Shown: positions 4,296 to 64,000 of the stretch, piece by piece
Numbering within the stretch: the first letter of the stretch is position 1
How the letters are laid out: every line of letters starts with the position of its first letter
Assembly: GCA_038867895.1 (NCBI GenBank)
Contig: JAWBXL010000004.1
Location: forward strand, 3,117 to 67,116
Direction: 5' to 3'
Length of the DNA: 64,000 nt
Origin: Candidatus Bathyarchaeia archaeon
Lineage (GTDB): Archaea > Thermoproteota > Bathyarchaeia > Bathyarchaeales > DTEX01
Notes under the pieces: model-generated
Database searches by the model: none
The model's input: the letters and a program-made list of their open reading frames with translations, nothing else
What the model was told of the DNA's origin: nothing
Program-made: the position numbers and the translations under genes

Positions 4296-4415
4296 ACTTC
4301 AAGACCATCCAGCCATTTATTCCATCTAAACTCTACTAAGATATTTATTTTTTCTCTAAAAACCTTATTAAGAAAAACATGTTTAAGTTAAGTAAATTAG
4401 CGGAGGCGATATTGG

Positions 4416-17136: not shown

Positions 17137-17148
17137 TTCCGCCTCATG

Positions 17149-18027: not shown

Positions 18028-18028
18028 C

Positions 18029-22986: not shown

Positions 22987-23346
22987 TTATTTTTTGAGTC
23001 TCTCCGCCTCACTTAACCTATTGTGGAAGCAGGTTTCTTCGCCTAGATGGCATGCTGGCCCCCTTGGTCTAACAACATATAGTATTGCATCTGAATCACA
23101 GTCAACAAGTATATCCACAACTTCTTGAACGTTCCCGGAGGTCTCCCCTTTCATCATAACCCTTCCATGAGACCGCCTATAGTAATGCGCGTAACCGGTC
23201 TCAATAGTCTTTTGGATGGCTTCCTTATTCACGTAAGCCAGCGTTAAAACTCTCCCAGCGCTCTCATCCTGAACAACAACTGGAAGTATTCCTCCGCCCT
23301 TCTCAAAATCCAGCTCATCTATGCTTATGTTCTTCAGAACCCTCAT
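22987..23346 (-). CDS. hisI: phosphoribosyl-AMP cyclohydrolase (monofunctional HisI)
   Basis: [26 protein letters not shown] and [12 protein letters not shown] motifs. At 119 aa there is no HisE domain. Confidence 0.85.
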
Positions 23347-24161: not shown

Positions 24162-24170
24162 GATAGTACT

Positions 24171-24890: not shown

Positions 24891-24905
24891 GAATAATCAC
24901 CTAAG

Positions 24906-29646: not shown

Positions 29647-29648
29647 CT

Positions 29649-45470: not shown

Positions 45471-45716
45471 GAGAAAGGCGGAAGACTCTTCTCCTTTTCA
45501 TTTCCTTTTTAACGGAAAATTGCACATTTTAAAAAATTTAAGATCTTAATAAACTTAGTCTCTTCGAGAGCAGACGCATTTCTTTGCTTACGGTTTTATG
45601 ACAATGGATTATGTTAAAAACTTATAAATAATCTTATCATAAAATTATTCTCGGTTAAGAATAAAAAATGCTTGGATAATCCTTGGTTATATCATCAAAA
45701 ATTTGGGGGAAGCCTT

Positions 45717-48798: not shown

Positions 48799-49079
48799 CT
48801 CAAACTAAATTTAATCTCTCAATAAAATAAAGTTTAGATATTTTAATCCTTTTATTTTTTCGAATAAAAATTGGAAACCTTAATAACCATTTTAGAAAAA
48901 TGATATGCTCTCTAAAGATTCGTCTTCTTGATCCCTAGTTACTTTTAGCATTCTAATCAAAAGAACATGTTTACCAAGCAAAATTAGAAGGGGATTATAT
49001 TAGAATTCAAAAAGAAATTGTTAAAAGTAAGATTATAGTTTTTGTTCTCTAATATGGAAAAGAGGTAAACTATTTGGGA

Positions 49080-50324
49080 ATGCTTGATCCACTTCTCTCA
49101 ATGCTGATATCTTTTTGTCTTTTGGGAGTTATGCTTTACAAAAGAGTGAAGCTTGGGATAGCGTTGATAGTAACACCTATAGTTTTAGCTTTATTAGCGC
49201 TTAATTGGTCTGATATTCCAGAATTGCTTTATGCCACAGTGGATCCATTTAAGCAGGATGGTCTTCTTGCTCTATTAGTTATCCTTGCAACCTTTAGTTC
49301 ATCTTGGTTTAGTTATCTCTACAAGGAGACGAGGGAAGTGGTGGTTTTTAGTGAGGGATTAAGCAATATTATTAGGAGGCCGAAACTCATATTATTTTTT
49401 CTTCCAGCCATAATAGGTCTCATTCCAGTTCCTGGAGGTGCTTTACTTTCAGCGCCAATAGTGGAATCTGAATCTAAAAATCTTGGTCTTAGCTCGGAGA
49501 AGATGGCTTACATTAACCTTTGGTTTAGACACACTATTTTCCCAATATACCCGCTGAGTCAGTCTCTTATAGTGGTGGCTGCTTTAACGGGTATTTCGCT
49601 ACTTACAATACTTTTGCTTCAGATACCAGTTATTGCGATGATGGTTGTGGTTGGATACTTAATAGGCTTAAAGGGCGCCTCTTCCCCAGAGAATAGGAAA
49701 TCAAGAGTTTCTGGAGTGTCTTCAAGGTCAGCGCCATTTATAGCCTTTCTACCCCTCCTGACAGCGATTCTCCTAGCGGTTATTTTAGGCGCCATAAACC
49801 ATAAATTGTTTCAGCAGGGTCTCAATGTTGTCATAGCGTCTTTTACTGGTTTAGTGCTCTTGGCCGCTATATCACATTCAGACTTTAAGATTTTTATAAA
49901 ACCTTTAACAAATTTATGGGTTTATGATGTAACATTCGCCACTTATGGCGCTTTTTTACTTCAAAATGTCATAAAAAGCATTAATATAATTGACTTATTT
50001 AAGTCTATGGTCTTAGAGAGGATGATAAGTGAAGCATGGTTATTGACGATTATTCCAGCATGCTTAGGTTTCTTCATGGGCTCTCCTATGGGAGCAGGAG
50101 CCATCGCTATATCAATTTTTTCCAGTCTCTCTATTTTTTCGCCAAAATCTGCAGCCCTCTTATATGCCAGCGCATACCTTGGATATATAGTTGCACCAAC
50201 CCACCTATGCCTTGTCTTCACAGTTGATTATTTTAAAAGCTCACTAGCTAAAGTCTATGAATATATAATTCCATCATTCATTACAGCCTATTTGACAGCT
50301 CTACTCCTATACTTCTTGCTTTAA
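49080..50324 (+). CDS. DUF401-like polytopic membrane protein
   Basis: More than 10 TM helices. The family assignment is recollection only. The track start is TTG 49074. Confidence 0.5.
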   Translation: MLDPLLSMLISFCLLGVMLYKRVKLGIALIVTPIVLALLALNWSDIPELLYATVDPFKQDGLLALLVILATFSSSWFSYLYKETREVVVFSEGLSNIIRRPKLILFFLPAIIGLIPVPGGALLSAPIVESESKNLGLSSEKMAYINLWFRHTIFPIYPLSQSLIVVAALTGISLLTILLLQIPVIAMMVVVGYLIGLKGASSPENRKSRVSGVSSRSAPFIAFLPLLTAILLAVILGAINHKLFQQGLNVVIASFTGLVLLAAISHSDFKIFIKPLTNLWVYDVTFATYGAFLLQNVIKSINIIDLFKSMVLERMISEAWLLTIIPACLGFFMGSPMGAGAIAISIFSSLSIFSPKSAALLYASAYLGYIVAPTHLCLVFTVDYFKSSLAKVYEYIIPSFITAYLTALLLYFLL

Positions 50325-50403: not shown

Positions 50404-51543
50404 TTATTTGTTTAGTCCTAGCTCGCGTAGGATCTCTTTGTTATGCTGCCCGATTTCTGGTGGCGGGGATCTAATTTCCAGTTTAAAGTCTGAGAACTTT
50501 AAAGGTATTCCAGGCATCTTTACCTTTTTACCTTTATATTCAACCTCAACTATCATGTTTCGGTGGAGTAGTTGCGGATGGTTTAGGAGATCAAGTGTCG
50601 TATTAACTGGGCCGCAAGCTATTCCAGCGTTGATGAGGGCGTTTTCAAGATCTTTTGTCTTCCACTCTTTAGTTAGCTTCTCAATTAATTGAGAAAGCTT
50701 TTCTCTATTTTTGGCTCTACTTTCTCTTGTAGAGAATAAAGGATCATTCACGAGATAATCCGCCTTTAAGATTTCACAGAATTTCTTCCAAGCGTCATCT
50801 TCATAGGCGGCTATAAATATATAACCATCCTTTGTCCTATAAACCTGATAAGGTGCCCCAATTGGCGCTGCTGAACCCATCCTCTCTCTAACCTTACCAG
50901 TTAGGGAGCTCCACGCTATCCAGTATCCAGCCCACATTGATGCAACATCTAACATGGATATATCTATGTATTGTCCTCTCCCAGTCTTTTCTCGGTAAAT
51001 AAGTGCCGCAAGTATCGCTAATGCCGCGTATGCTCCAGTTCCATAATCAACTATCGATGCTGGTATTCTTGATGGTAAACATGGCTCTGGGTCCCCAGTC
51101 ATCGACATGAGCCCAGATTCGGCTTCTATAACTGGATCCCAAGCAGGGCGTTGATAATATGGCCCGGTTTGTCCATAACCTGAAATTGAGCAGTAAATTA
51201 TTCTAGGATTAATTGCCTTAACACTTTCATAGTCTAATCCAAACTTCTTCATAGTTCCTGGAACAAAGTTTTCAACCAGAACATCAGCCCTCTTTACTAA
51301 CTCAAGAGCGACTTTCTTCCCCTCCTCAGTTCTGAGATCCAAGGATATTCCTCTTTTATTCCTATTGTTAACTATGTATGCTGTCTCCAGCATATCAACC
51401 CAGTACCTTGCCCGATCCCCCCTAGGCGGCTCAATTTTAATTACATCAGCGCCTAAGTCTGCTAGAAGAGCTGCGCAATGCGGTCCGGCGACCTCATGTG
51501 TAAAATCAAGAACTTTTATTCCTTCTAATGGCGCCCTAACCAC
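50404..51543 (-). CDS. family III CoA-transferase (CaiB/BaiF/BbsF-like)
   Basis: PLEGIKVLDFTHEVAGPHCAALLADLGADVIKIEPP is a typical N-terminus. The length is 379 aa. Confidence 0.85.
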   Translation of the reverse strand: MVRAPLEGIKVLDFTHEVAGPHCAALLADLGADVIKIEPPRGDRARYWVDMLETAYIVNNRNKRGISLDLRTEEGKKVALELVKRADVLVENFVPGTMKKFGLDYESVKAINPRIIYCSISGYGQTGPYYQRPAWDPVIEAESGLMSMTGDPEPCLPSRIPASIVDYGTGAYAALAILAALIYREKTGRGQYIDISMLDVASMWAGYWIAWSSLTGKVRERMGSAAPIGAPYQVYRTKDGYIFIAAYEDDAWKKFCEILKADYLVNDPLFSTRESRAKNREKLSQLIEKLTKEWKTKDLENALINAGIACGPVNTTLDLLNHPQLLHRNMIVEVEYKGKKVKMPGIPLKFSDFKLEIRSPPPEIGQHNKEILRELGLNK

Positions 51544-51794
51544 GATTTTTCCCTCCCTAATCTTTAATCTTTTTGAATGATCTCAGTAATAATGTTTTCG
51601 TTAGCATGATTTGAAAGCATTGTTATATCTATAAGATGAAAAGTCTAAAAAGTATAGTTCAATTTTCCTTGCTGAGAATTTTTCTTAAGCGTGTGCTCCC
51701 ATGAAACCTTTTATGCGAATCATATATAAGAGCATCGATCCTAAAAGATTATATCGAAGCTGCAACCATTATCTTGGTTAGAAAGGTGATCAAT

Positions 51795-52676
51795 ATGGTG
51801 GGCGAGAAAGAGAAAGAAAAGTTGATGGAAGCATATCTCCATGGCTTCTTAGACAAGGCTCTCTTAGGAACTCGCGAGGATGCTCTGAAGAAGCCCATGG
51901 TGAAAATATTCGGAAAGGAAGTTGAGATATATGATCTATCCCATCCAGTCAGCGAAAGGACGCCGACATGGCCGTATGGCGCTGCAGGCATCGAGACATC
52001 TAGGTTGCGTTCCCATGCGCATGATCGTGTCCTCGCCGTAAAACTCTCCCATACTATGCATATGGGAACACATATAGATGCGCCTTTACACGTGGAGGAG
52101 GGTTACCCATCCATTGACGAGATGCCCTTAGAGCGTTATATCGGGGATGGAGTAGTTGTATCGATTCCTAAGAAGGAATGGGAAATAATAACCCCCGAGG
52201 ACCTTGAGAAGGCTAAGCCGAAAATAGAAGAGAATGACATAGTTATCATTAACACCGGCTGGCACAATTATTACGGAGACTATACTAGATACTTCTGTTT
52301 CGGCCCAGGGCTCTATAAAGAGGCTGCCGAATGGTTCGTGAAGAAGAGAGTTAAGGGCGTTGGAGTTGACCTACAAGCCATGGATCACCCATTAGGTACC
52401 AGACTTGTCCAGACGGGTGGCGGAATGCCTCCTCTTGAGCCATGGCTAATAGATCTCTATAAGAAAGTGACTGGGAGAGATGTTTATCAAGACTTTCCAT
52501 ACTGGGAGCCATGCCACAGACTCTTATACACACATGGAATCTTTGGAATAGAAAACATCGGCGGTGACATAGACAAGGTTACTGGTAAGAGATGCGTCAT
52601 TGCAGCCTTCCCACTTAAGTGGGTTGGTGGAGACGGATCAATGGTTCGGGTAGTAGCAATAGTCGAGAAAAAATAA
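51795..52676 (+). CDS. cyclase-family metal-dependent hydrolase (kynurenine formamidase-like fold)
   Basis: HMGTHIDAPLH (HxGTHxDxPxH). ATG 51795 follows AAGGTGAT. The track start is TTG 51774. Confidence 0.75.
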   Translation: MVGEKEKEKLMEAYLHGFLDKALLGTREDALKKPMVKIFGKEVEIYDLSHPVSERTPTWPYGAAGIETSRLRSHAHDRVLAVKLSHTMHMGTHIDAPLHVEEGYPSIDEMPLERYIGDGVVVSIPKKEWEIITPEDLEKAKPKIEENDIVIINTGWHNYYGDYTRYFCFGPGLYKEAAEWFVKKRVKGVGVDLQAMDHPLGTRLVQTGGGMPPLEPWLIDLYKKVTGRDVYQDFPYWEPCHRLLYTHGIFGIENIGGDIDKVTGKRCVIAAFPLKWVGGDGSMVRVVAIVEKK

Positions 52677-52737
52677 GTGGAAAATATTCCTGATGCCCCT
52701 AACATTGATGGATAGAGGTTTTCTCTACAAGCTTTTT

Positions 52738-53532
52738 TTATTTTCCCTTCCAAACTGGTTTTCTTTTTTCTAAAAATGCCTTTGCCCCCTCTTTTTGATC
52801 TTCCGTGCTGAATAACTGTGCAAAGATTTGCGCCTCATACTTAAAACCCTCTGTTAAACTCACTTCTAGAGCTGCGTTTATTGCTTCTTTTGCCGCTGCC
52901 AAGGCTACGGGACTCTTCTCCTTAATTTTCGCGATGAATTCGTTAACAGCATCCATAAGCTTATCCGCTGGAACAACCTTGTTAACTAAGCCCATCTGCT
53001 CCATTTCTTTGGCAGGGATTCTTTCTCCAGTAAATATGAGCTCTTTAGCCTTCTTCTCGCCGATAAGCCTTGGCAATCTTTGGGTTCCACCACCCCCTGG
53101 GATTAAGCCGAGGTTTATTTCTGGTTGGCCGAAGACAGCATCTTCAGAAGCAATTATTATATCGCATGCCTGAGCTAGCTCGAAACCAGCGCCTAGGCAA
53201 TATCCATGGACTGCGGCTATCACTGGTTTCGGAGCGTTTTTAATTATCTCAGAGAGGACTAATGCTGTCCCAACTTCTCTCGCCATGTTTAGAATATCAA
53301 GTGGCTTCATTTCTGCCATGGCGCGTATGTCCCCTCCAGCGCTAAAGGCCTTTCCAGACCCCCTTATAACAATCGCTAAAACACCGCTATCTCTGCTTGC
53401 GTCTTCTAAAGCCTGCTTCAGCTCCCTGCGCGTCTTAGCGTCAAGAGCATTATAGCGCTCTGGATTATTAAGTGTAATCCAGGCAACTCCATCTTTCTTC
53501 TCATATATAATGCGGCTAAATGTTGCACTCAT
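52738..53532 (-). CDS. enoyl-CoA hydratase/isomerase (crotonase) family protein
   Basis: GKAFSAGGDI, GYCLGAGFELA and the GQPEINLGLIPGGGGTQRL oxyanion-hole motifs. Confidence 0.9.
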   Translation of the reverse strand: MSATFSRIIYEKKDGVAWITLNNPERYNALDAKTRRELKQALEDASRDSGVLAIVIRGSGKAFSAGGDIRAMAEMKPLDILNMAREVGTALVLSEIIKNAPKPVIAAVHGYCLGAGFELAQACDIIIASEDAVFGQPEINLGLIPGGGGTQRLPRLIGEKKAKELIFTGERIPAKEMEQMGLVNKVVPADKLMDAVNEFIAKIKEKSPVALAAAKEAINAALEVSLTEGFKYEAQIFAQLFSTEDQKEGAKAFLEKRKPVWKGK

Positions 53533-53673
53533 ATTCGCTCCCTCTCTTTAAATATTTTCAGAAGAAGATTTTTATTTATTATTTTAGTTTTGTTTTGACG
53601 TGATTTTTAAGTTAAGTAAAGTTTAAAAGTAATATGGTTCTTGTATAGAGAAAGGAGGAAGGGGAGATAGTAT

Positions 53674-54096
53674 ATGAAGAAAGAGGTCCCGATAATGGAA
53701 GGCATTTTCGAGTGGCCTTCGGAGAATCCGAGGTTAATAGCGACGAGATGCCCACTTTGTGGAAGTATACAGTTCCCTAAGTCGAGCGTTTGCAATAACC
53801 CCGACTGCGACCATAGTGCGCCTGTAGAACAATGCTACCTAAGTACTGAGGGAACATTATATACATATACTATTCACGCCTACAGTTTACGAGAACCATT
53901 CGAGTATCATAAAGGGCCATACATAGTCGGCGCAGTTGAGCTGCCAGAAGGGTTAATTGTGGTTGGGAGAATCAAGGCGGAGGACGAAAAAATGTTAAAG
54001 ATTGGGATGAAAATGAAGTTAAAAATAGATAAGCTCTATGAGGATAGTGAAAATATCTATTTAGGTTATTTTTTTGAGCCGGTGGTGGAAAAATGA
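53674..54096 (+). CDS. DUF35 zinc-ribbon/OB-fold protein (thiolase partner, BbsA-like)
   Basis: CPLCGSIQFP...CNNPDC zinc ribbon followed by an OB-like segment. Its stop overlaps the thiolase start by 4 nt. Confidence 0.8.
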   Translation: MKKEVPIMEGIFEWPSENPRLIATRCPLCGSIQFPKSSVCNNPDCDHSAPVEQCYLSTEGTLYTYTIHAYSLREPFEYHKGPYIVGAVELPEGLIVVGRIKAEDEKMLKIGMKMKLKIDKLYEDSENIYLGYFFEPVVEK

Positions 54097-55313
54097 CTGA
54101 GAGCGCGATAGTTAGTGCGGCTATAACGGAATGGGTTGAAGCTGGCCATCCGACTCCTCTGCTAATAGATAAGTTAGCCGAGGTTACTGTGAGATCTCTC
54201 AGAGAAGCAAATTTAAGACCGCGCGATCTAGATGCCATAATTACGAACACCACAGCGATACCATTTGATAGCCCATCCTATATAACGACAAGCGCGCAGC
54301 ATTTTGCCCATAGGCTTGCAGAGAGGATCGGTGCTAAGGGAGCCCAATGCATTAATGTTTGCGCTGCGTGTGCAAGCGCCTCAATAGCTTTCGCTCTTGC
54401 CGACTCGCTCATAAAGACTGGCGCGATAAAAACGGCGCTTGTGGCGGGCGTTGATAATTCTCCACGAGGCTTCTACCTGCCAGGCCAATCCGTTCTTGAT
54501 CCCGATCCATATGCGGCTGCTATAAAGGTTATTGGGGCGACTAATCCAGCTTATTGGGCTATGTGGGCTAGGAGACGGGCATATGAAATGGGCCGGCCAG
54601 TTGAAAGCATTAAAGAGCTTATGGCGTTGGTGAAAGAGATAAACAGCAAGTATGGCTCTCTGAATCCCTATGCAAGATACAAGAAAATTTTCACTGTTAA
54701 GGATGTTTTGGCATCGCCTGTCGTTTGTGATCCACTACACCTTTATATGATATGTGCAACAAGCTCTGGCGGAGGAGCTGTGGTAGTTACAGAGATGGAG
54801 AAGGCAAAAAAGATAACTGATAAACCAGTAAAGATAGCGGCTTCTACTGTGGGTGGACCGATTTATGGCGAGCCTATGCCAAGATTGAGGGTTTTTTCGA
54901 CGAAGAATATTGAGAAGCCCTTTACTGAGTGGCGTCTTCCCATCGAGAAAGCCTATAAAATGGCTGGTATAACTGCCGAGGACATAGACATTATAGAGTG
55001 CCATGATACAAGCTGTTTTCACACGATAAACTGGATAGATCAGATAATGGGCTGGGAGCGGGAGGAGACCGATAAGCTAATAAGAGATAGGCAGATCGAG
55101 CATACCGGTATGGTCCCAGTGAACCTAAGCGGTGGAACAGCTTCATTTGGAGAGGCTGTGATGAGTCAAGCCTTCATGATGATACATGAGCTATTCAGGC
55201 AATTGAGGGGAGAAGCTGGCGAGAGACAGGCGAAAAAGAACCTTAAAATCGCGATCTTTACAGCCTATGGAGCCTATGGAGCATACGGATGCGCAATACT
55301 TGAAAAAGTCTAG
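54093..55313 (+). CDS. thiolase-like protein, SCP-x/BbsB type
   Basis: INVCAACASAS (Cys nucleophile), ECHDTSCF and GGTASFGEAV. It is coupled to DUF35. Confidence 0.8.
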   Translation: MTESAIVSAAITEWVEAGHPTPLLIDKLAEVTVRSLREANLRPRDLDAIITNTTAIPFDSPSYITTSAQHFAHRLAERIGAKGAQCINVCAACASASIAFALADSLIKTGAIKTALVAGVDNSPRGFYLPGQSVLDPDPYAAAIKVIGATNPAYWAMWARRRAYEMGRPVESIKELMALVKEINSKYGSLNPYARYKKIFTVKDVLASPVVCDPLHLYMICATSSGGGAVVVTEMEKAKKITDKPVKIAASTVGGPIYGEPMPRLRVFSTKNIEKPFTEWRLPIEKAYKMAGITAEDIDIIECHDTSCFHTINWIDQIMGWEREETDKLIRDRQIEHTGMVPVNLSGGTASFGEAVMSQAFMMIHELFRQLRGEAGERQAKKNLKIAIFTAYGAYGAYGCAILEKV

Positions 55314-55370
55314 TCTACTTTTACGAATAATCTCTCCTCTGTTATTTTTAATTTAATTGTCTCTATATTT

Positions 55371-56459
55371 TTAGATCTGCTCCATTAATATTTTCGCGAT
55401 TAAGTTGTTTATTTCGCCGCTTTTTATATCCTCGGATGAATCTCGTGTTCCCAATAATAGGTCTAGAACATGTTTAGTCTGGATATTTGGTTGTGTGTTC
55501 CAGAAGATCTGCGCGCAGGTATAGCAATAGACCACCATTAAATCCGCGCCAGTTGATGAGAACTCCTCCGTTCTCGCTGATGAAAGTTTTAATGTGAGAT
55601 TTGGGTCAGCTATAGAGGCCATGCCGCCAGCACCGCAGCATAAAGACTTTTCCCTAGAATGTTTCATCTCTATGATTTTGCAGTCTTTAAGTAGGCTTCT
55701 AACCTGTGTGGCTAAGATGCCCTCAAATCTATCTGGGCAGCTATCATGAATAGTTACTTTCAGGCCTAAATAATTTGTTTCTTTAATAAGGGTTTCGCCT
55801 AAGGTCTCATATACAGTTAAAATTCTATATGATTTTGGAAGAGAGTTTTTAAGATGATAGTAGCACATGGGGCATGCAACTATTATATTTCTACACCCGT
55901 GTTTTATAAAGTGATTTTCTAGGTTCAGGAGCCATCTTGAAGCTCTTTCGGTTAAGCCTATATCTGCTAATGGTTTACCGCAACATGTGTCGGTAAACCC
56001 CATACTGCAAAATTTCTCTCTAAGTCTCTGGTATACTTCCTTAACAGCTTCTGGAGAGTAAGAGGACATGGAGCATCCTGGAAAGAAAATGTATTCAAAA
56101 GAATCATTTTCTGGGAAACTATATGTTATTCCCTTATAGGTCTTGTAGGCTCTGGGAAAGAAGAGGGGATCATCTGGTAGAGAAAATCTATAATATATTT
56201 CGTTGGCCACGTATTTTGAGAAGGATCGTCTAGCGTGGGCGATTATCGAAGGAAAATCCAGGGTTTTTGGGCAAACAATTTTACATAGACCGCATAAAAG
56301 GCACTCCATTACATACCTTTTATTTTGGTCAATGCCGTTAAGGAGGTCCTTAGCGATATTCTTTGGCATCCAATTATATTTTGATAGAAAGGGGCAGTCT
56401 TCAACGCATAACTGGCATTCTATACACTCATCAAGAATAAGTTTGAGAGACTCATTCAT
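55371..56459 (-). CDS. Fe-S oxidoreductase with two ferredoxin-type 4Fe-4S motifs and two CCG domains (HdrD/GlpC/LutA-like)
   Basis: CIECQLCVEDCP and CLLCGLCKIVCP, then DTCCGKP and SLCCGAGG (CCG motifs). Confidence 0.8.
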   Translation of the reverse strand: MNESLKLILDECIECQLCVEDCPFLSKYNWMPKNIAKDLLNGIDQNKRYVMECLLCGLCKIVCPKTLDFPSIIAHARRSFSKYVANEIYYRFSLPDDPLFFPRAYKTYKGITYSFPENDSFEYIFFPGCSMSSYSPEAVKEVYQRLREKFCSMGFTDTCCGKPLADIGLTERASRWLLNLENHFIKHGCRNIIVACPMCYYHLKNSLPKSYRILTVYETLGETLIKETNYLGLKVTIHDSCPDRFEGILATQVRSLLKDCKIIEMKHSREKSLCCGAGGMASIADPNLTLKLSSARTEEFSSTGADLMVVYCYTCAQIFWNTQPNIQTKHVLDLLLGTRDSSEDIKSGEINNLIAKILMEQI

Positions 56460-56489
56460 TGATTATTCCTCCAAATAGATGTTTTTATT

Positions 56490-57689
56490 TCAAACATAAG
56501 TTATCATTCTTCCTCTTTCTGTTTGTCTTATAGCTATAGGCGGTTTAATCGATGTGATCTTATCTATCATCCGTCTTATCCTTTCAATATATTTTTTCTC
56601 AAGATCTAGATCAGTTTTAACAACTTTTTTTGCAACCTCCCCGCAATAGTTGCAATCGCCACAGCCGATTATGCATGGCGGGTTATTTTTCACGAAGAAT
56701 TCATACCATCCGTCGAGCGATCGATTATCAATTGAAATTTTCAGTAGAGGTAAAGGTTCAGCGTCTAGGTCAAACATGTCCCAGCAAAAATGCATGTAAG
56801 AATTATCAATGAGGGCATATATATCGCCATCATATCTCCCGGCAAGATAGGCTTCAATAAGTCTTAATAGATCATCTGCCGGCAGCCCTCGCCCGGCTAT
56901 CTTAATATAATCTATCCCTAATTGAGCATAATATTTAATATCCTCTGGCCTAATCCAAGGCGCCTTCATGATCTCCTTATGATCACTCAATCTCTTAAGA
57001 GTGCATCTCATGAATGGATATGGCTTATATGTAAATCCTATTGGATCATCTATTGGGCATTGAGAGACATGAGCCGTTATAGTGTTATGGTAAGTTCTAA
57101 ATGGACATTTTAGCAGGCAGCCATTATTGGCTATAACTTCCAGTTTAGCTCTACACTTCTCTCTTATTATTCTTAGCACTCTAAAGGACTTGTTGAGATC
57201 TTCGCTCAGCGTGAGTCTCGTAGCTCCTAAACTCTCATATGTCAACGCCCGATTCAAAGAATCTATATAGCATAGGGATGAAGCATTAACTTCGAACTGC
57301 GGGAAATTCTTCACCACATACTCAATAAGGTATGGTATGGCAATAATAAGTGTATCAACCTTAAACTCCAAAAGTTTCCTTAAAAGATCATTTAAGGCCA
57401 CCCTCCCCTCCTCCGTATACTCGGCGAGGCCCATGCATACTGGATTTAACGTGTAGGCGAACCTAATCCCGTAAGCATGAGCCTTCCCTATATGCCGGGC
57501 AAGCCTATCTTCACTTATATCTGGGAGAATAGTTGCTGGCCAACCAGTACCAAAAATAGAGAACTTAAATGAGCCATAAACCTCGTAAACGTAAGATCCT
57601 AAATCACGATATTTCTCATTCAAATTACCTATCCTTTCTAAAAAGGAGTCCTCAAAAGTTGTGGGAACGCAGAGCCTAATAATGGTCAT
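56490..57689 (-). CDS. divergent U32-family (UbiU/UbiV/collagenase-like) TIM-barrel protein with C-terminal Cys cluster
   Basis: VDTLIIAIPYLIEYV..FEVNASSLCYIDSLNRALTYESLGATRLTLSEDLN...LEVIANNGCLLKCPF follows the U32 core pattern loosely. C-terminal CIIGCGDCNYCG. A 30-nt gap separates it from the CCG protein gene. Confidence 0.5.
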   Translation of the reverse strand: MTIIRLCVPTTFEDSFLERIGNLNEKYRDLGSYVYEVYGSFKFSIFGTGWPATILPDISEDRLARHIGKAHAYGIRFAYTLNPVCMGLAEYTEEGRVALNDLLRKLLEFKVDTLIIAIPYLIEYVVKNFPQFEVNASSLCYIDSLNRALTYESLGATRLTLSEDLNKSFRVLRIIREKCRAKLEVIANNGCLLKCPFRTYHNTITAHVSQCPIDDPIGFTYKPYPFMRCTLKRLSDHKEIMKAPWIRPEDIKYYAQLGIDYIKIAGRGLPADDLLRLIEAYLAGRYDGDIYALIDNSYMHFCWDMFDLDAEPLPLLKISIDNRSLDGWYEFFVKNNPPCIIGCGDCNYCGEVAKKVVKTDLDLEKKYIERIRRMIDKITSIKPPIAIRQTERGRMITYV

Positions 57690-57864
57690 CTTTAAACACC
57701 AATATGAATATGAGCGCTCTTAGATTTTAGCGTTCTGAAGCATATTTGAGAGTCTTAAAGAATTGGGTGAAATCCTTTCCTCGTAACTAGGAATTTGGCT
57801 TATTCTCAGAAAGGTTTAAATTTATTAATTGCTATTTTAGGTAAGTTTAGGTTTAGGAGGATTC

Positions 57865-58140
57865 ATGATGATATTTCTGCCGCGGGCCTCTTTACCCCCG
57901 AAGCTTCAGATAATTGTTAGAAAGGTTGGGGAAAAAGACTATGAAATAACAACTGAACCTAAGCTGGAGCCAATGGTTTTCGCCACATTTGTTGTAACAT
58001 TTAAGCAGTGTGCGAAAAATTGCGTAGTTAAGCTCTCTGGCGGCAAACTTAATCTTTCTGGTGAAGCCCCTGACTTTAAAACAATACTTGATTGTATAAG
58101 TAGCCAGTCCCCAATACCAGTTGAACTTCAAATGGTTTAG
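57865..58140 (+). CDS. small protein of unknown function (91 aa)
   Basis: TAGGAGGA lies 4-5 nt upstream of the ATG. It is convergent with the radical SAM gene and overlaps its stop by 4 nt. The antisense ORF 57892-58131 is considered a shadow. Confidence 0.4.
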   Translation: MMIFLPRASLPPKLQIIVRKVGEKDYEITTEPKLEPMVFATFVVTFKQCAKNCVVKLSGGKLNLSGEAPDFKTILDCISSQSPIPVELQMV

Positions 58141-59504
58141 AGGAGAGATCTATACAATTTTTTCTTATCAGTTGCGGTCACATTATATAGGCAGAACGGT
58201 ATGAGCCTACCGTTACCTCTAACTTCATGGACACAGCATTTATTTAGTCTCTCAATATCTATCGTCCAAGCGTCCTGAGCGAAGTGACAGCCCACCGAGA
58301 AAAATCCCTCCGGCCTTAAATATTCAAGTAGAATCCTAAGGAAGGAACCAGCTGCTTGTGGTCTAAGATTCCTTGCGAACTCCCTTGAGATATTAAGCTC
58401 ATCCGCAATCGCCTTCAAAATGTCATCGAAATCCACAAATCTATTGGTTAATGAGTACTTATCTATTAGCTCCTCTACATCAACCAGTCTAGTTAAAACA
58501 TAAGGATTTCCATCTTCTCTAAGATAAGTGTAGAGAAGCGATGAGCACCTTGGATCTGGGCATGGAACAGGAATAAAATCAGTAGCTTTTATTTTCCCCT
58601 CACTTCCCCTCTCAATCTCTTTTTGAACATCACTTATAGTAACCCGATCTACTGGATCAAAGACTTTTGGGGGGTATCTTCCAAGGGCTGCAAATGGTTG
58701 AAAATTCACTCCTATCGCTCTCCTTTTAATAGCATATTTGATGATATTCCATGCCTGGTCATCATTGACGCCCTTTATGAGAGTTGCCGCTAGAGTTACG
58801 CTTAGACCTGCCTTAATGCAGTTTTCAATCGCTCTCTCCTTAACTTTTGTCAGGTCCCGTCCCCTTATTACCTGATAGACCTCAGGTGCTAAACCATCGA
58901 ACTGTAAATATACACCACTAATTCCATCGTCTGCTAGATCTTTGGCTAGGGCTGGATTTTTTGAAAGCTCTATTCCATTTGTATCCACCTCAATTAGCCT
59001 GAAGCCTAAGTCTCTAGCCAATCCAATAATTTCAATTAGATCATTTCTTATAGTGGGTTCTCCACCTGAGAACTGAATCGCTGTGGGTTTTCCCTCACAT
59101 CTTAAGAGGGCTTTGAGAATCTCCTCTATCTCTCCTATTGAAGGATTCCAGCTTGGCTCCTCTTGCGAGTCTGCGAGACATACTGGGCATAATAGGTTGC
59201 AGGTATCTGTAATTTCAAGTATCGCTAAGCAAGTATGCTGTCTATGAGATGGACAGAGACCGCAATCAAATGGGCATCCCCTCTCAGTCTCTTTGACATA
59301 AAATTCATTCGGCTTTTTGCCAACTCTAGAGAATTTTAAGGCTCTTTTGTACAAGTTCAGATCACTCCAAAGCAATGCCCGAGTAGATCCGTGTTCTTTA
59401 CAGTACTTCTCCATGTAAACCTGCTTTCCATCAGTGAAAATTCTAGCCGGAATAAGGTTTAGGCACAAGGGACATAAACTTTTGGTCTCGCTTAGAGTCT
59501 CCAT
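58137..59504 (-). CDS. radical SAM enzyme of the MJ0619/Tes (GDGT-MAS)-like family
   Basis: TKSLCPLCLNLIPARIF...YMEKYCKEHG, GCPFDCGLCPSHRQHTC, CNLLCPVC (CX3CX2C), QFSGGEPT, and the C-terminal HFAQDAW..ERLNKCCVHEV...RLIPFCLYN. This architecture matches my recollection of MJ0619. Confidence 0.65.
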   Translation of the reverse strand: METLSETKSLCPLCLNLIPARIFTDGKQVYMEKYCKEHGSTRALLWSDLNLYKRALKFSRVGKKPNEFYVKETERGCPFDCGLCPSHRQHTCLAILEITDTCNLLCPVCLADSQEEPSWNPSIGEIEEILKALLRCEGKPTAIQFSGGEPTIRNDLIEIIGLARDLGFRLIEVDTNGIELSKNPALAKDLADDGISGVYLQFDGLAPEVYQVIRGRDLTKVKERAIENCIKAGLSVTLAATLIKGVNDDQAWNIIKYAIKRRAIGVNFQPFAALGRYPPKVFDPVDRVTISDVQKEIERGSEGKIKATDFIPVPCPDPRCSSLLYTYLREDGNPYVLTRLVDVEELIDKYSLTNRFVDFDDILKAIADELNISREFARNLRPQAAGSFLRILLEYLRPEGFFSVGCHFAQDAWTIDIERLNKCCVHEVRGNGRLIPFCLYNVTATDKKKLYRSLL

Positions 59505-59597
59505 AAAAATAATAAAACAATGTTACTAATTAAAGGATTATCCTGAAGAGCTAGGAATAAAAAATTGAATGATGTTGTAAAGGATTTTTTCTTCTTT

Positions 59598-59861
59598 TTA
59601 GCTAATTAGTTTTAAGCCCATTTCAGTTGTTTTCCATTTTCCTTCCCAGCGAAGGCCACCTGTCTTCTCTAGTTCCCAGATAAAGTACGCTGGCCAAACT
59701 TTTGTCTTCTCATAGGTGGCTTTGAGATCCTCAAGCACAAACCGCTCTATCTCATTTTTTGTTTTTGGCTCGCGGCAGAACTTGAGAATCTCAGTATAAA
59801 TATTTCCAAATTCAGGATCGCGTAAAAGATCACCCAAAGTTTTCGTGACAACCCCATTCAT
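59598..59861 (-). CDS. small possible winged-helix protein (87 aa)
   Basis: ORF track. It lies on the same strand 93 nt upstream of the radical SAM gene. The wHTH call rests on a weak pattern only. Confidence 0.4.
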   Translation of the reverse strand: MNGVVTKTLGDLLRDPEFGNIYTEILKFCREPKTKNEIERFVLEDLKATYEKTKVWPAYFIWELEKTGGLRWEGKWKTTEMGLKLIS

Positions 59862-60206
59862 ATCCTCTCACCTTAGATTATCTATTTTAGCTTTGCAATT
59901 AATAAAATTTTATCTATTTTTGGCATTATACTTTGGAAATAAAGTTATTTTTCCAACCTCCAGGTTATACTTCGGTCTCTACTGGCCAGATTGCTGATAG
60001 GTTCTTTAGAAGTTTCCAGTATTTTTATAGGTGATGAAAGCAAAGCGGAAAGAAGAGCTTGAGTTTTGTCATAAAACTTCGCGAAGGAATGGTGAAAATA
60101 AAATCTTTTAGAGTCCTCATTTAAATATCTTTATGTTTATAAGTTAGAGAATGAAGACGTTAATCCAAGTGAAATTTGATGCAAAATATGTGGGGGTAAT
60201 ACGCTT

Positions 60207-60932
60207 ATGTCGAGCTTTGAAAGTTCTATCAAAGAAAGGCTAATTGTATGTTTTGGAGGACGGGAAAAATTGTATAAATTTTTAGGGAGAATATATGAGA
60301 AGGAAGTTGATGAGCAACTAATTAAAGAGTGCATTATACGCAAGGAATTATTTCTAAAATGTAATTTGATTAGAGAAGTGGATGCTGATATAATGGAAGG
60401 CTTCATGGAACTATACAAATACCTTAATGGGTTAAAAGTGGGGAACTTAAATGAGATTATACTGGAACTTGCAGTTGATTATGCAAACCTATTCTTAGGA
60501 GTTAAATATTTTCGTGAGAAGAAAGGGATACCTCATCCCTCAGAATCGGTTTACTTAACTGGTAATATGCTTAGCGAAGAAGAAACTATATCAGAAATTT
60601 ACTTGGAAGCAGGTCTCATTAAGTCTCCGGAATTTAAGGAGCCTTATGATCATATTGCACTTCAACTATATTTTATGGCCCACCTGTGTAAAAAGGCAAT
60701 TGACTTTGTAAAAAGTGGAAACCTGCAGGATCTGTTGAGAAATCTTCAAATGCAAAAGAGTTTTCTAAGCGAGCATTTGTTAAAATGGGTTCCGAAATTT
60801 GCTGGTGATGTGATAGAGAATTCAGAGACTAGTTTTTATAAAGCTATTGGAAAAATAACAAGAGGATTAATATGCATGGAAAAAGATGTGATAGAGGAAA
60901 TTATTGAGCAGGCTAAAAAATTATTACTTTAA
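60207..60932 (+). CDS. TorD/DmsD-family molybdoenzyme maturation chaperone
   Basis: LAVDYANLFLG...PHPSESVYL...EPYDHIALQLYFMAHL fits the TorD family pattern. Confidence 0.7.
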   Translation: MSSFESSIKERLIVCFGGREKLYKFLGRIYEKEVDEQLIKECIIRKELFLKCNLIREVDADIMEGFMELYKYLNGLKVGNLNEIILELAVDYANLFLGVKYFREKKGIPHPSESVYLTGNMLSEEETISEIYLEAGLIKSPEFKEPYDHIALQLYFMAHLCKKAIDFVKSGNLQDLLRNLQMQKSFLSEHLLKWVPKFAGDVIENSETSFYKAIGKITRGLICMEKDVIEEIIEQAKKLLL

Positions 60933-61792
60933 CCTTTTTCTAAGCCTATTGTTCCCAGATTTATGTCTTTACTCGTTAGGTATACGCCGAGAGTCTTACC
61001 TTTATAACCACTTTTCTCAATTTTAATTAAGTATTTGTGGTTCCATTCAAGATCTTTAAGCCAGAAGTCTCCTAATTCATCCGTGTTTGTCTCATGTTTT
61101 TCGCCAGTATATAAGTCTAGAGCGGTAACTTTAGCGTCGATCACGACCTCTTTCTCATCAAAATCTACCACGCAACCTGCAATAAAGGGTTTAGGCAAGT
61201 TTAGATAGCACACTCTTGGCCTCGTATTATATTCTCGCCCTATAACATCCGCGTTCCTTATTAATTCCTTGATTTTACTATCGCTTTCATCTCCGTAGAT
61301 TATTGCCCCCGTGGGGCACGCATCATGGCATCTAGGCCCGTATTTCCAATCTGGGTCATCAAGCAAATGAGAACATCCAGTACACTTTTGTGCGATTCCC
61401 AGCTCACTATTGAAATATATTATGTTATATGGGCATGCCTCAATACATAAAGGCTTGTTAACCCCTAATGGCTTACATCCATTACATTTGTTTGGATCTA
61501 TTAATACTATACCATCAGGCCTCTTAACTATGGCGCCTATTAAGCAGGCTCTCATGCATGGTGGGTTGTTACAGTGCATGCATAAAATCGGTATATATGT
61601 TACTTTAACTTTTGGTATTGATCCTCGTTCTTGCATATCAACTTTTATCCAGAATTGTCCATATTCGGGTTGTGGTTTAGAGTATGGGCTCCAGTCATTG
61701 CCGACAAACTCGTCTTTACAAGATATGACACAGCTCATACAACCTATACATTTATTCACGTCAATAATGAAAATTTTCCCCATCTTTCTCAC
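60929..61792 (-). CDS. 4Fe-4S electron-transfer (beta) subunit of a Mo/W-bisPGD oxidoreductase, with a C-terminal Ig-like/carboxypeptidase-regulatory-like domain
   Basis: Several CxxCxxCxxxC(P) groups (CIGCMSCVISC, CMHCNNPPC, CNGC...CIEACP, CTGC...CHDACP). The C-terminal ~90 aa beta-rich tail is AGCVVDFDEKEVVIDAKVTALDLYTGEKHETNTDELGDFWLKDL. Confidence 0.85.
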   Translation of the reverse strand: MRKMGKIFIIDVNKCIGCMSCVISCKDEFVGNDWSPYSKPQPEYGQFWIKVDMQERGSIPKVKVTYIPILCMHCNNPPCMRACLIGAIVKRPDGIVLIDPNKCNGCKPLGVNKPLCIEACPYNIIYFNSELGIAQKCTGCSHLLDDPDWKYGPRCHDACPTGAIIYGDESDSKIKELIRNADVIGREYNTRPRVCYLNLPKPFIAGCVVDFDEKEVVIDAKVTALDLYTGEKHETNTDELGDFWLKDLEWNHKYLIKIEKSGYKGKTLGVYLTSKDINLGTIGLEKG

Positions 61793-61794
61793 CT

Positions 61795-64000
61795 CTAGGT
61801 GACAAGATAAATTTCTGTTGTTGGGCCGATTATTGGATGCATTTTTCTCTTAAAGGCTTCAGGATACTTGCTCATCAACTCATTTATATCAACCTTTTTA
61901 ATATTTACAAGAATGCCGGAGCAAACCTGTTCTGGCACTCTTATCTCTTCTCCTGGCATATACTTGAAGGTTGGCGTCGGCATCAAAAGGTCAATTGCTC
62001 CTCCTCTATCGATCTTATCATCAACGCTAATCATATCAACTCTCGCTCCGTGGTCGATCGATATTGCCCCGGGGATAATCCTCTCAGTAATTATTGCTCC
62101 AGCGAGGGTTGATCCATAATCGTTATAGATCATTATTATATCTCCATCTTTAATGCCTAGTTTTTCTGCATCAGATGGGTGAATCCAGACTCCCTCATAT
62201 AAATATCCATCTGGTCCTCTGACCTTATAGATCTCTCTTAACCATATTATCTCATCCCCTTGCGAATGAAATCTATATCTTGGATGATTGGAGCAGACAA
62301 TGAATGGATACTTTCTCCTTTTAGTTGAAATAGGTAGCTCGTCATGCTCAATCCACCTGGCGACTGGAGGTCTCTCATTATCGGTAGGAGCATATTTTAG
62401 AGCTAGCTGTGACTGATACTCTATTTTGCCGCTGGGAGTCTCCAGATTACTTTTCGCTTTATAGAATTTGCTCATAAATGAATCATAAGTATCATATCCA
62501 AATTTTTTCTTAATTTCGACCCACTCTTCCCATGTGGGATGACTGTAGATCATTATTTTCTTTTTCGTCTTAAATTCTTCCCAGCTTATCCCATTCTTCT
62601 TAAATGCAAGGGTTTTTTCATAGAATTCTTTTAGAATCACCTCTGGATCTGGGAACTTTTCTATTAGTTCAGGCTTGTTAAATTCTTTTGCTAATCTTTC
62701 CGCAATCATTCGGTGAATCTCATAGTCGCTCTTAGATTCGCCGATAGGTTCGATACATTTATCATGATATGCTATTCCCACTATCTCTGAGCGGGCGCTT
62801 ACTACAAGGTCTGCAACCTCATGGTCCGTCAGCGCGGGTAAAACGAGGTCTGCAAATAATGCATCATTTTCAAACCAAGGATGTATTACTAGGTGAAATT
62901 CTATCTTTGGATTTCTGAGAGCCTCAATGAACTTATATCCATGCCAGCATGTCGTGTAGCATGCGTTTTCATTCCAGATCATTCTAATACCAGGGTGGTC
63001 ATCGGTTGGCGGATATCTATATTTCACGAAAAGATCCTCTACAACGTTAAATTGAGCGCCAGAACACCACCATTTAACTGGGGGATTTAATATTGCGTCT
63101 GGAACCAACGTCTTTATGAGAGGAATCGCTGGTGGAGGCTGCACCTTAAATGCATATTTTGTTCTTTCAATATAGGAGCGCGCTTCCTCAACCACTTCTG
63201 GGTAAGAAGGCAGCAATGACACATCTTTCATATTAAGTCTTGATGAAACCCAGAATCTCAAGAATTGTCTTCCGGGCTTCCCAAGCCCTTGCATCGCTAA
63301 AACATATGCCTCCATTCTACCCGCGATGTGAGAATAAGGTCCCCTGATCTTGCTGCCCCCATAAACGACGGCGAGAGAGGTTCTCTTTTTGGCCCATAGT
63401 CTAGCCAGCGCCTTTATTGTCCATTGCGGTACTCCAGTTATTTTCTCAGCCCACTCTGGAGTCTTCGGAATCCCATCATCTTCCCCTAAAACATGCTTTT
63501 TAAATTCCTCAAAACCCACGGTGCGCGTATTAACATAATCCTTATCGTAAAGTCCCTCTTTAATCCAAACATATGCTATAGCCAGATAGAGAGCGGCATC
63601 CGTGCATGGATTAACTGGAATCCATTTATCAGCCCAAACAGCCTCACTATAGTTTAGATCCGGAGATATTGCGATTATCTCAATTCCAGCCTTTTTAAGG
63701 GCCTCGCACAAGTGTGACACGTGCGAACTGAAACCCGCAGCCGTTGTTTCGGGGTCGCATCCAGAGAATATTACTACTTCTCCATACTGTAGAACATTAT
63801 CCCAAGCTCCATCTTGATATGGCTCCCCAAGCGTTGAATCAAAGCCCCATACTAGCTTAGCCCCCCAATAATAACCCTCCCAGCTATCTGGATTTCTAAT
63901 TTGTTGAGTCCAGCCGAATCCCAGGTGATCAAAAAGCATGTGGCCATAAAAGTGCATTGTATGTAAGAAGCCTGATTGACCGTGTCCGTCGCCCTGCACT
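61795..64000 (-). CDS. Mo/W-bis(pyranopterin guanine dinucleotide) oxidoreductase catalytic (alpha) subunit, DMSO reductase superfamily, 5' end outside the window
   Basis: The 734-aa partial ORF is open to the window edge. It has MopB-type domains and a C-terminal dinucleotide-binding barrel (DGDIIMIYNDYGSTLAGAIITERIIPG). A 2-nt gap separates it from the beta subunit. Confidence 0.85.
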   Translation of the reverse strand, partial: VQGDGHGQSGFLHTMHFYGHMLFDHLGFGWTQQIRNPDSWEGYYWGAKLVWGFDSTLGEPYQDGAWDNVLQYGEVVIFSGCDPETTAAGFSSHVSHLCEALKKAGIEIIAISPDLNYSEAVWADKWIPVNPCTDAALYLAIAYVWIKEGLYDKDYVNTRTVGFEEFKKHVLGEDDGIPKTPEWAEKITGVPQWTIKALARLWAKKRTSLAVVYGGSKIRGPYSHIAGRMEAYVLAMQGLGKPGRQFLRFWVSSRLNMKDVSLLPSYPEVVEEARSYIERTKYAFKVQPPPAIPLIKTLVPDAILNPPVKWWCSGAQFNVVEDLFVKYRYPPTDDHPGIRMIWNENACYTTCWHGYKFIEALRNPKIEFHLVIHPWFENDALFADLVLPALTDHEVADLVVSARSEIVGIAYHDKCIEPIGESKSDYEIHRMIAERLAKEFNKPELIEKFPDPEVILKEFYEKTLAFKKNGISWEEFKTKKKIMIYSHPTWEEWVEIKKKFGYDTYDSFMSKFYKAKSNLETPSGKIEYQSQLALKYAPTDNERPPVARWIEHDELPISTKRRKYPFIVCSNHPRYRFHSQGDEIIWLREIYKVRGPDGYLYEGVWIHPSDAEKLGIKDGDIIMIYNDYGSTLAGAIITERIIPGAISIDHGARVDMISVDDKIDRGGAIDLLMPTPTFKYMPGEEIRVPEQVCSGILVNIKKVDINELMSKYPEAFKRKMHPIIGPTTEIYLVT

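Follow-up and report, generated by a model that had tools for sequence, protein, structure and literature searches.

Ring opening of dihydrophloroglucinol is catalyzed in Clostridium scatologenes by DPGC, a Mn-dependent protein of the cyclase family (Zhou et al., 2023, PMC10470551), and a phloroglucinol gene cluster has been predicted in archaea for Archaeoglobus (PMC10470551). In the present study, 64,000 nt of DNA from a Candidatus Bathyarchaeia archaeon (assembly GCA_038867895.1, contig JAWBXL010000004.1, positions 3,117-67,116; this whole stretch is termed the window) were analyzed, with a focus on a putative catabolic gene island at 50404-64000. Bathyarchaeia are among the most abundant archaea of anoxic sediments, and growth with lignin has been reported for them. 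A cultivation study of a lignin-using member of the Bathyarchaeia reported that its genome yielded no known genes of aromatic ring cleavage (PMC10989822). We consider it rather likely that the island, together with about 7 kb beyond the end of the window, is a bathyarchaeal gene set for the anaerobic catabolism of hydroxylated benzenes via phloroglucinol. Family membership, orthology and conserved clustering are directly observed in these sequences, while substrates, the order of steps and the roles of the enzymes of the coenzyme A (CoA) module are predicted from them. An initial annotation had already joined these genes into one archaeal anaerobic trihydroxybenzene-type pathway; its expectations regarding enzyme family, synteny and the cyclase were borne out, and the proposal is supported here with several corrections.

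Genes were identified from a map of open reading frames (ORFs), from Pfam and NCBIfam scans and by searches against PDB sequences, and all genes named in the initial annotation are present at the positions given there. For this organism, the DNA examined comprises the 64 kb window and about 7 kb of further sequence on a continuation contig (JAWBSJ010000022.1, here L018), which was retrieved by exact look-up of the beta subunit protein. The closest homologues of the window alpha subunit occur in Bathyarchaeia genomes at identities of up to 93%. Among the loci used for comparison, L001/L002 represent the closest relative, L017 is a bathyarchaeal metagenome contig and L015 is A. fulgidus AE000782. 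The relevant features of the window are:

50404-51543, minus strand: family III CoA-transferase (Pfam CoA_transf_3, 5e-131)
51774/51795-52676, plus strand: cyclase-family metal hydrolase (PF04199, 4e-39; motif HMGTHIDAPLH)
52738-53532, minus strand: crotonase-family enoyl-CoA hydratase (Pfam ECH_1, 1e-78)
53674-54096, plus strand: DUF35 protein with Zn-ribbon and OB fold, partner of the thiolase (Pfam zf-ChsH2 and OB_ChsH2_C)
54093-55313, plus strand: SCP-x type thiolase-fold protein (Pfam Thiolase_C_1)
55371-56459, minus strand: HdrD-like CCG/Fe-S protein (Pfam, NCBIfam, PDB)
56490-57689, minus strand: U32-family protein (Pfam, NCBIfam, PDB)
58137-59504, minus strand: Tes/TrsS-like radical SAM protein (Pfam, NCBIfam, PDB)
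60207-60932, plus strand: TorD/NarJ-family chaperone (Pfam Nitrate_red_del, 8e-24), convergent with the beta subunit gene and overlapping its end
60929-61792, minus strand: beta subunit ORF with Fer4_11 and a C-terminal CarboxypepD_reg domain (residues 204-275, 1.8e-9); the likely ATG start gives 60929-61783 and 284 aa, a product found exactly on nine public contigs
61795-63999, minus strand: alpha subunit, Mo-bisPGD type (Pfam Molybdopterin and Molydop_binding); the gene runs off the end of the window
42683-43579, plus strand: F420-type luciferase-like (LLM) oxidoreductase (NCBIfam models of F420-dependent LLM classes score best, each below its cutoff)

The cyclase-family hydrolase is the candidate for ring opening, and the suggestion in the initial annotation that the dihydrophloroglucinol ring-opening enzyme belongs to this family is correct (PMC10470551). 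As reference, a 336-aa protein of Emergencia timonensis was used in place of C. scatologenes DPGC (CsDPGC); it was recovered by a genome scan with a published CsDPGC cloning primer, shares the published CsDPGC peptides and falls into the same UniRef50 cluster as CsDPGC. The window cyclase is 35% identical to this protein (E about 1e-50), and its matches to isatin hydrolase, to the kynurenine formamidase KynB and to 1r61 range from 1e-13 to 1e-10. A cyclase of A. fulgidus, whose organism and gene cluster match O29068, is 62% identical to it, in line with membership of the DPGC orthogroup. O29068 is listed as DPGC in PMC10470551, and a supplementary table of the same paper places six “Candidatus Bathyarchaeota” proteins in this DPGC UniRef50 cluster. 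In CsDPGC, Trp20 and Tyr22 replace the substrate residues (Ile/Leu) of isatin hydrolase (PMC10470551). The corresponding RWPY stretch aligns with TWPY in the window cyclase, and among 13 cyclase orthologues the Trp and Pro are invariant and the Tyr is present in 11. The H, T, H, D, P and H positions of the motif HxGTHxDxPxH are invariant in the same orthologue alignment, and the PF04199 match spans the full profile. Judged by these similarities, the window cyclase is probably a dihydrophloroglucinol cyclohydrolase. One alternative would regard the genes of the island as coincidental neighbors, with the cyclase being a kynurenine-formamidase-like amidohydrolase, the Mo enzyme an S-/N-oxide or respiratory reductase and the CoA genes part of generic fatty-acid metabolism. 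The JGI annotation does label homologues “kynurenine formamidase” and “TMAO reductase,” but the values of about 1e-11 to 1e-10 against KynB and isatin hydrolase compare poorly with about 1e-50 against DPGC.

The window contains the C-terminal 734 of the 906 residues of the alpha subunit of the Mo enzyme, about 170 N-terminal residues lying outside, and this part is 100% identical to a 906-aa gene on L018. Among PDB entries, the large subunit of pyrogallol hydroxytransferase scores highest (4v4c_A, 4.8e-84, 286 bits), followed by dimethyl sulfoxide (DMSO) and trimethylamine N-oxide (TMAO) reductases with 154-187 bits (about 1e-54), and PsrA, ArrA, EbdA, NarG and acetylene hydratase yield at most 85 bits in the same search. 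As the initial annotation had supposed, the alpha subunit groups with the transhydroxylase and not with enzymes of the nitrate, arsenate, ethylbenzene, polysulfide or tetrathionate type. A full-length homologue (P0001, 93% identical to the window alpha subunit) matches 4v4c_A at 7e-108, and the Pfam domain AhtL-like_1st is found on the full-length alpha gene. The beta subunit likewise matches the small subunit best (4v4c_B, 2e-42), with residues 8-282 aligned and the extra C-terminal domain included, which confirms the transhydroxylase-like Ig domain noted initially. Because the full-length alpha subunits (L018, P0001) carry no twin-arginine (Tat) motif and no N-terminal Cys cluster, with a single Cys in the first 120 residues, the enzyme is predicted to be cytoplasmic like the Pelobacter transhydroxylase subunit AthL. 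A coincidental grouping could draw on the presence of a TorD-family chaperone, on NCBIfam matches that are all sub-threshold (93 bits for the TorD-like protein, cutoff 132) and on a 69% identical alpha homologue that adjoins Rieske/cytochrome b and DsrMK-like genes. It conflicts with the far higher score of the alpha subunit against AthL than against Tor/Dor/BisC enzymes, with the missing Tat signal and with the BthL-type beta subunit, whose extra domain has no Tor/Dor/BisC counterpart. Enzymes of the latter type are single-subunit.

An alignment of 15 alpha subunits splits into two clades. Clade A contains Pelobacter AthL and archaeal proteins with 48-59% identity to it, and clade B is composed of the window alpha subunit, its bathyarchaeal relatives and many bacterial proteins that are about 55% identical to the window protein. 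Members of both clades are encoded in this genome. L018 is 99.98% identical to window positions 59834-64000 and continues for 7,268 bp past the window end, where it contains the complete 906-aa alpha gene, an MFS transporter gene, a divergently transcribed second alpha/beta pair (alpha2/beta2) and a polyferredoxin gene. The alpha2/beta2 pair is located 1.8-5.5 kb beyond the window end, and its alpha subunit is 57% identical to Pelobacter AthL over the full length (E=0). Consequently, a genuine transhydroxylase orthologue stands beside the divergent paralogue of the window. The alpha2 protein of L001, 95% identical to that of L018, reaches 59% identity to AthL and 1108 bits against 4v4c_A and retains His144, Arg153, Asp174, Ser175, Tyr404 and Tyr560. 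Together with Trp354, the residues His144, Arg153, Tyr404 and Tyr560 reportedly form the substrate/co-substrate pocket of AthL in the work of Messerschmidt et al. of 2004.

In three Bathyarchaeia genomes, AthL-type pairs are flanked by genes for a 794-aa HdrA-like FAD/Fe-S/FlpD protein and a 297-aa polyferredoxin, with 71-87% identity between the genomes (L018 1-1404; L003 502-3865; L001 1-706). This arrangement suggests that the Mo enzymes are coupled to low-potential electron transfer. External electrons are not required by the transhydroxylase of Pelobacter.

Analysis of the genomic context in relatives revealed that the island genes are conserved as a group, and the cluster conservation that the initial annotation had named as a check extends across phyla. 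In L001/L002, the gene order is AthL(A)/BthL, ABC transporter, MFS transporter, AthL(B)/BthL, TorD, FBPase, DUF401, CoA-transferase, cyclase, SDR, crotonase, DUF35 and thiolase; the window has the same content with one block inverted. Identities between window genes and their L001 counterparts are 85-94%, except for TorD (71%), and the CoA-transferase gene adjoins the cyclase gene in the window as well as in L001/L002 (91% identity). L017 carries two clade-B pairs directly before cyclase and SDR, followed by thiolase, DUF35, crotonase, a methyltransferase and a radical SAM gene of the same type as in the window, and in L017, L020 and L021 two clade-B pairs stand directly beside a cyclase-SDR-thiolase-DUF35-ECH cluster. 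Conexivisphaera, which belongs to a different phylum, has ten genes on one strand in the order AthL-BthL-crotonase-cyclase-SDR-CoA-transferase-DUF35-thiolase-AthL-BthL. Their products are 43-67% identical to the window proteins, the CoA-transferase being at 43%, and both alpha subunits belong to clade A. Cyclase clusters of L016, L017 and L020-L023 include orthologues of the crotonase (67-80%), the DUF35 protein (62-80%) and the thiolase (60-80%). Since the same families recur together in other archaea, the clustering is not a matter of chance; with the same gene set found in four different arrangements across two phyla, the reading as coincidental neighbors is strongly disfavored. The DUF401 membrane protein and the FBP aldolase/phosphatase (FBPase_3) encoded at 47659-50324 also adjoin the CoA-transferase gene. 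In L001/L002 they are located between TorD and the CoA-transferase, and neither occurs in the Conexivisphaera or L017 clusters. The DUF401 protein might be a transporter.

A broader view was obtained from metagenome contigs, which were searched with an alignment of the cyclase orthologues. The search returned 80 loci with 51-80% identity, and partner genes were sought at each of them. An SDR of the cyclase-adjacent type was found at 56 of the 80 loci and 3HCDH and/or BKACE genes, as in the bacterial TfD/TAL branch, at 39. The set of crotonase, DUF35 protein and SCP-x thiolase was present at four, and no locus of the 80 had both downstream sets. The chief argument for a replacement of TfD/TAL by the CoA module is this lack of co-occurrence. 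AthL-like alpha genes were identified at 13 loci (11 clade A, 2 clade B), 12 of them among the 38 loci of at least 10 kb. Both assignments gain support from how often AthL orthologues and members of the cyclase orthogroup are encoded together.

It is nevertheless conceivable that the island serves another cyclic or aromatic substrate, for example of the resorcinol/cyclohexanedione type, hydroxyhydroquinone or a substituted phenolic acid. The cyclase would then open another cyclic beta-diketone, and the CoA-transferase, crotonase, SDR and DUF35/thiolase proteins would perform a beta-oxidation similar to that of the Bbs proteins of benzylsuccinate degradation. The combination of family III CoA-transferase, enoyl-CoA hydratase, SDR and DUF35/SCP-x thiolase is indeed that of the Bbs module. 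The DUF35 protein matches the BbsA-like NCBIfam model (7.6e-11) and the thiolase a lipid-transfer protein/BbsB-like model, both weakly and far below the model cutoffs. In addition, a crotonase is superfluous in the textbook route, the pocket of the clade-B alpha subunit is altered and the cyclase shares only 35% identity with the characterized type. We regard such a different substrate as unlikely: the cyclase orthologues (51-64%) are overwhelmingly accompanied by PGR-like SDR, TfD-like and TAL-like genes and also occur in the Archaeoglobus cluster, the Trp/Tyr substrate signature is conserved, and this genome as well as 11 of the 80 loci have close AthL orthologues nearby, whose product would be phloroglucinol. 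A further assignment of the DUF35/thiolase pair, to the archaeal mevalonate complex, was rejected, as no HMG-CoA synthase gene is adjacent, the score is far below cutoff and the two genes stay together with the cyclase cluster in relatives.

A number of observations count against the phloroglucinol route, and the first group of these concerns the Mo enzyme of the window. The window alpha subunit and the rest of clade B share only about 32% identity with AthL. In the window protein, Met stands in place of Arg153 and Gly in place of Trp354, and the loop with Tyr560 is missing. Clade-B homologues with 69-81% identity are found in unrelated contexts (L004) or beside respiratory-type modules (L006), and the bacterial homologues of about 55% identity are encoded beside genes of aerobic aromatic catabolism, not beside phloroglucinol genes. 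A second group concerns the downstream steps. The SDR gene is cleanly absent beside the window cyclase, where the stop codons of cyclase and crotonase genes are 61 bp apart (52677-52737) and the spacer is unrelated sequence with no pseudogene remnant. A tblastn search of the 64-kb window with the A. fulgidus SDR, 3HCDH and BKACE proteins and the Emergencia PGR yielded nothing. Between the SDR of the relatives and the Emergencia PGR, identity is no more than 32%, and among PDB entries a “gluconate 5-dehydrogenase” matches this SDR best. The phloroglucinol route of the textbooks does not call for a crotonase. Finally, a co-directional trio of seemingly unrelated CCG, U32 and radical SAM genes (55371-59504), not mentioned in the initial annotation, interrupts the island between thiolase and TorD.

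With respect to the Mo enzyme, these differences are shared by most other clade-B sequences, which also have Gly in place of Trp354, lack the Tyr560 loop and carry Met, Leu, Cys or Pro in place of Arg153; relative to AthL, clade B has an N-terminal extension of about 44 residues. The motif NPDSWEG, which includes Asp174 and the Ser ligand of Mo (AthL Ser175), is identical in AthL and the window alpha subunit, and all 15 aligned sequences share its D, S and W. The aligned His144 is retained in clade B and Tyr404 in every one of its members except one, and the window protein has both. On this alignment, the two clades share a catalytic core and differ in the surrounding pocket. The window pair is accordingly classified, from its sequence, as a member of the transhydroxylase family and a divergent paralogue, not the pyrogallol transhydroxylase itself; that this particular enzyme converts pyrogallol appears improbable. 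Thus, the family and architecture proposed in the initial annotation hold, and its identification as the transhydroxylase applies to the orthologue pair beyond the window instead of the paralogue (about 32%) within it. Given its different pocket, the clade-B enzyme probably has another phenol as its substrate or functions as a net hydroxylase. Orthologues of the TorD-like protein adjoin clade-B beta genes in five other loci (L001, L002, L005, L006 and L018), and none was found beside the clade-A pairs examined. A plasmid protein search with the clade-B alpha subunit returned only relatives of at most 34% identity over near full length, and thus no close homologue with an annotation.

With respect to the SDR, the gene follows the cyclase in L001 (19489-20262), L016, L017 and L020-L023. 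Its product is 45% identical to the SDR of the A. fulgidus cluster and up to 53% identical to SDRs of TfD/TAL-type loci, which favors a function as phloroglucinol reductase. It could, by its sequence family, instead be a hydroxyacyl-CoA dehydrogenase, and one redox step lacks a candidate in either case. For the window, in which no SDR, BKACE or 3HCDH homologue is encoded, this applies to at least one redox step. A gallate decarboxylase gene was likewise not found in the window. The clean loss of the SDR with its unrelated 61-bp spacer, the block inverted relative to L001 and the trio inserted between thiolase and TorD could also indicate that the island is real and has decayed here into an incomplete, non-functional remnant, which would be compatible with the phloroglucinol reading. 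Such decay is quite unlikely in our view: the remaining island genes are all intact ORFs, 71-94% identical to their L001 counterparts and free of frameshifts, and the reductase could be encoded elsewhere in the genome, of which 64 kb plus 7 kb were examined.

Candidates for the missing redox step were sought among the neighboring genes. The LLM oxidoreductase, which lies outside the island proper and had been named as a speculative ring reductase in the initial annotation, is F420-type by its best matches and remains a weak candidate. The association of LLM genes with AthL-like pairs and cyclase clusters is weak; those encoded near such clusters are 48% identical to the window copy in L003 (8968-9834) and 27-35% identical in A. 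fulgidus (L015 14025-15071), L047, L040 and L032. A ring reductase resembling class II benzoyl-CoA reductase, with the HdrD-like protein, the HdrA/polyferredoxin proteins and the tungsten-type AFOR (45672-47582) as its components, was considered. It was rejected as regards the AFOR, whose gene is located upstream of the island at a distance of 3 kb: scores of 484 bits against 9mqx/1aor and 208 bits against BamB mark this enzyme as a classical AOR. Within the inserted trio, the radical SAM protein carries an HMPTM zinc ribbon. Its best NCBIfam match is “TrsS” with 426 bits, below the cutoff of 490, and the match to the tetraether lipid synthase 7tol reaches 4e-88. Orthologues are encoded beside TorD in L005 (62%) and within the islands of L017/L020 (45%). 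The CCG protein matches the NCBIfam model “diclust_near_Sec” below cutoff. An orthologue of the U32 protein (81%) is encoded beside the AthL-like pair in L003. O2-independent hydroxylases are known among the U32 proteins, and by analogy the protein might conceivably take part in the anaerobic hydroxylation of aromatic compounds.

Under the phloroglucinol reading, phenols would enter the cell via the MFS transporter encoded on the continuation contig, or via ABC transporters in the relatives, and the clade-A enzyme would convert pyrogallol to phloroglucinol. The clade-B enzyme, matured by TorD, would carry out related hydroxyl chemistry on another phenol. It might act as a transhydroxylase of different specificity; in Pelobacter massiliensis, degradation of hydroxyhydroquinone requires sequential transhydroxylations. 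Alternatively, it might act as a net hydroxylase that passes electrons via the Fe-S clusters of its beta subunit to carriers encoded nearby, such as the HdrD-like protein, the HdrA-like flavoprotein and the polyferredoxin. Phloroglucinol would then be reduced to dihydrophloroglucinol, for which the cyclase-adjacent SDR, absent in the window, is the candidate in relatives. The cyclase-family Mn hydrolase would open the ring to 3-hydroxy-5-oxohexanoate, the family III CoA-transferase would form the CoA ester of the ring-opened acid and, after oxidation to 3,5-dioxohexanoyl-CoA, the DUF35/SCP-x thiolase would release acetyl-CoA and acetoacetyl-CoA. In this scheme, a Bbs-like module of CoA-transferase, crotonase and DUF35/thiolase would stand in place of TfD/TAL. 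A more far-reaching proposal, which we put forward only tentatively, is that Bathyarchaeia and Conexivisphaerales possess a complete anaerobic route of their own from demethylated lignin and tannin phenols to acetyl-CoA, combined from an acquired transhydroxylase, clade B and the Bbs-like module. As part of that proposal, clade B may be a so far unrecognized, TorD-dependent AthL-like clade that hydroxylates or transhydroxylates other phenols and is fed by Fe-S/HdrA-like carriers.

The remainder of the window has a housekeeping character, with shikimate and histidine operons, FTR, FBPase and the AOR-type tungsten enzyme. Housekeeping blocks are located at 2457-5318, 8921-9877, 14739-19620, 22008-22976 and 23343-30641 and include a molybdopterin-domain protein gene adjoining that of formylmethanofuran:H4MPT formyltransferase, as well as two TtuA-like PP-loop genes. 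A classical thiolase encoded at 6151-7467, 43 kb from the island, is 61% identical to a thiolase within the phloroglucinol-type cluster of A. fulgidus and could split acetoacetyl-CoA. The 756-aa protein encoded at 31337-33607 contains DUF7507, DUF11 and SdrD_B repeats and is probably a surface protein, and a 709-aa ORF at 39447-41576 has no Pfam match.

The idea of an archaeal phloroglucinol pathway is not wholly new, as the Archaeoglobus cluster was predicted in 2023 and Bathyarchaeota cyclases are contained in the supplement of the same paper. A search of the literature available to us found no paper naming both Bathyarchaeia and phloroglucinol. To our knowledge, neither a close AthL orthologue clustered with DPGC in Bathyarchaeia and Conexivisphaerales nor a second, TorD-associated AthL-like clade with altered pocket has been described, and we know of no account of a CoA-transferase/crotonase/DUF35-thiolase module that replaces TfD/TAL, or of such an island in a group whose cultivation study reported no known ring-cleavage genes. 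The island provides named candidates for ring cleavage in at least some Bathyarchaeia, namely the transhydroxylase orthologue, the clade-B Mo enzymes and the DPGC-type hydrolase, and its CoA-dependent branch appears to substitute for bacterial TfD/TAL. So far, archaeal predictions of the phloroglucinol pathway have been confined to Archaeoglobus; the island would add two more archaeal phyla, with a bearing on the turnover of polyphenol and tannin carbon in sediments and hot springs. The clade-B enzyme is also of interest for its many bacterial relatives (about 55% identity) without assigned function. If the complete route proposed above is correct, it would give the Bathyarchaeia their first assigned pathway of aromatic ring cleavage and would supply genes for a CoA-dependent branch known only biochemically from Pelobacter (1992).

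Among the known systems, AthL/BthL (PgtL) of Pelobacter acidigallici (PDB 4V4C/1TI2) resembles the window enzyme most closely in design. Both are two-subunit cytoplasmic Mo-bisPGD enzymes with the Ser ligand in NPDSWEG, an alpha subunit free of an N-terminal Fe-S cluster and Tat signal, and a beta subunit with Fe-S clusters and a C-terminal Ig-like domain. The window alpha subunit differs from AthL in its identity of about 32%, in the N-terminal extension of about 44 residues, in the TorD-like chaperone encoded alongside and in the loss of Arg153, Trp354 and the Tyr560 loop. The other characterized member of the RhL/PgtL family is the resorcinol hydroxylase (RhLS) of Azoarcus anaerobius, which like AthL is a cytoplasmic enzyme of two subunits, coordinates Mo by Ser and acts on phenols (PMC10100899). 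Going by its description, a net hydroxylase mode of this kind would fit clade B, in which the apparent co-substrate pocket is missing and Fe-S carriers are encoded nearby. Hydroxyhydroquinone, the product of RhLS, is broken down oxidatively along another route, for which the window has no genes.

With the PGR-DPGC-TfD-TAL cluster of C. scatologenes (PMC10470551), the island shares the orthogroup of the ring-opening enzyme, including the metal motif and the Trp/Tyr signature. Of the four enzyme families of that cluster, only the DPGC type is present in the window, which contains no TfD (3HCDH), TAL (BKACE) or SDR and has a family III CoA-transferase, a crotonase and a DUF35/SCP-x thiolase instead of TfD/TAL. 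In A. fulgidus, the cyclase gene is clustered with genes for an SDR, a 3HCDH-family dehydrogenase and a BKACE-family lyase. The Archaeoglobus cluster also encodes a different, non-AthL-like Mo enzyme (L015 6518-9233), consisting of a 741-aa alpha subunit with an Fe4S4 domain and a 165-aa Fer4_11 subunit; an orthologue with 77% identity stands beside a cyclase orthologue in L024. The enzyme may be another molybdoenzyme active on polyphenols.

A CoA-dependent triacetate route, with CoA activation and thiolytic cleavage to acetyl-CoA units, was reportedly observed by Brune and Schink in 1992 in extracts of Pelobacter acidigallici. As far as its description allows the comparison, the CoA-transferase and thiolase of the window would supply the steps of this route, and the crotonase has no place in it. 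The Pelobacter genome was not available according to PMC10470551. The Bbs benzylsuccinate module (BbsEF, BbsH, BbsCD and BbsAB) has a family composition in common with the island, the SDR counterpart being found only in the relatives. The island differs from it in having no acyl-CoA dehydrogenase and in being linked not to glycyl-radical enzymes but to a cyclase-family hydrolase and AthL-like enzymes.

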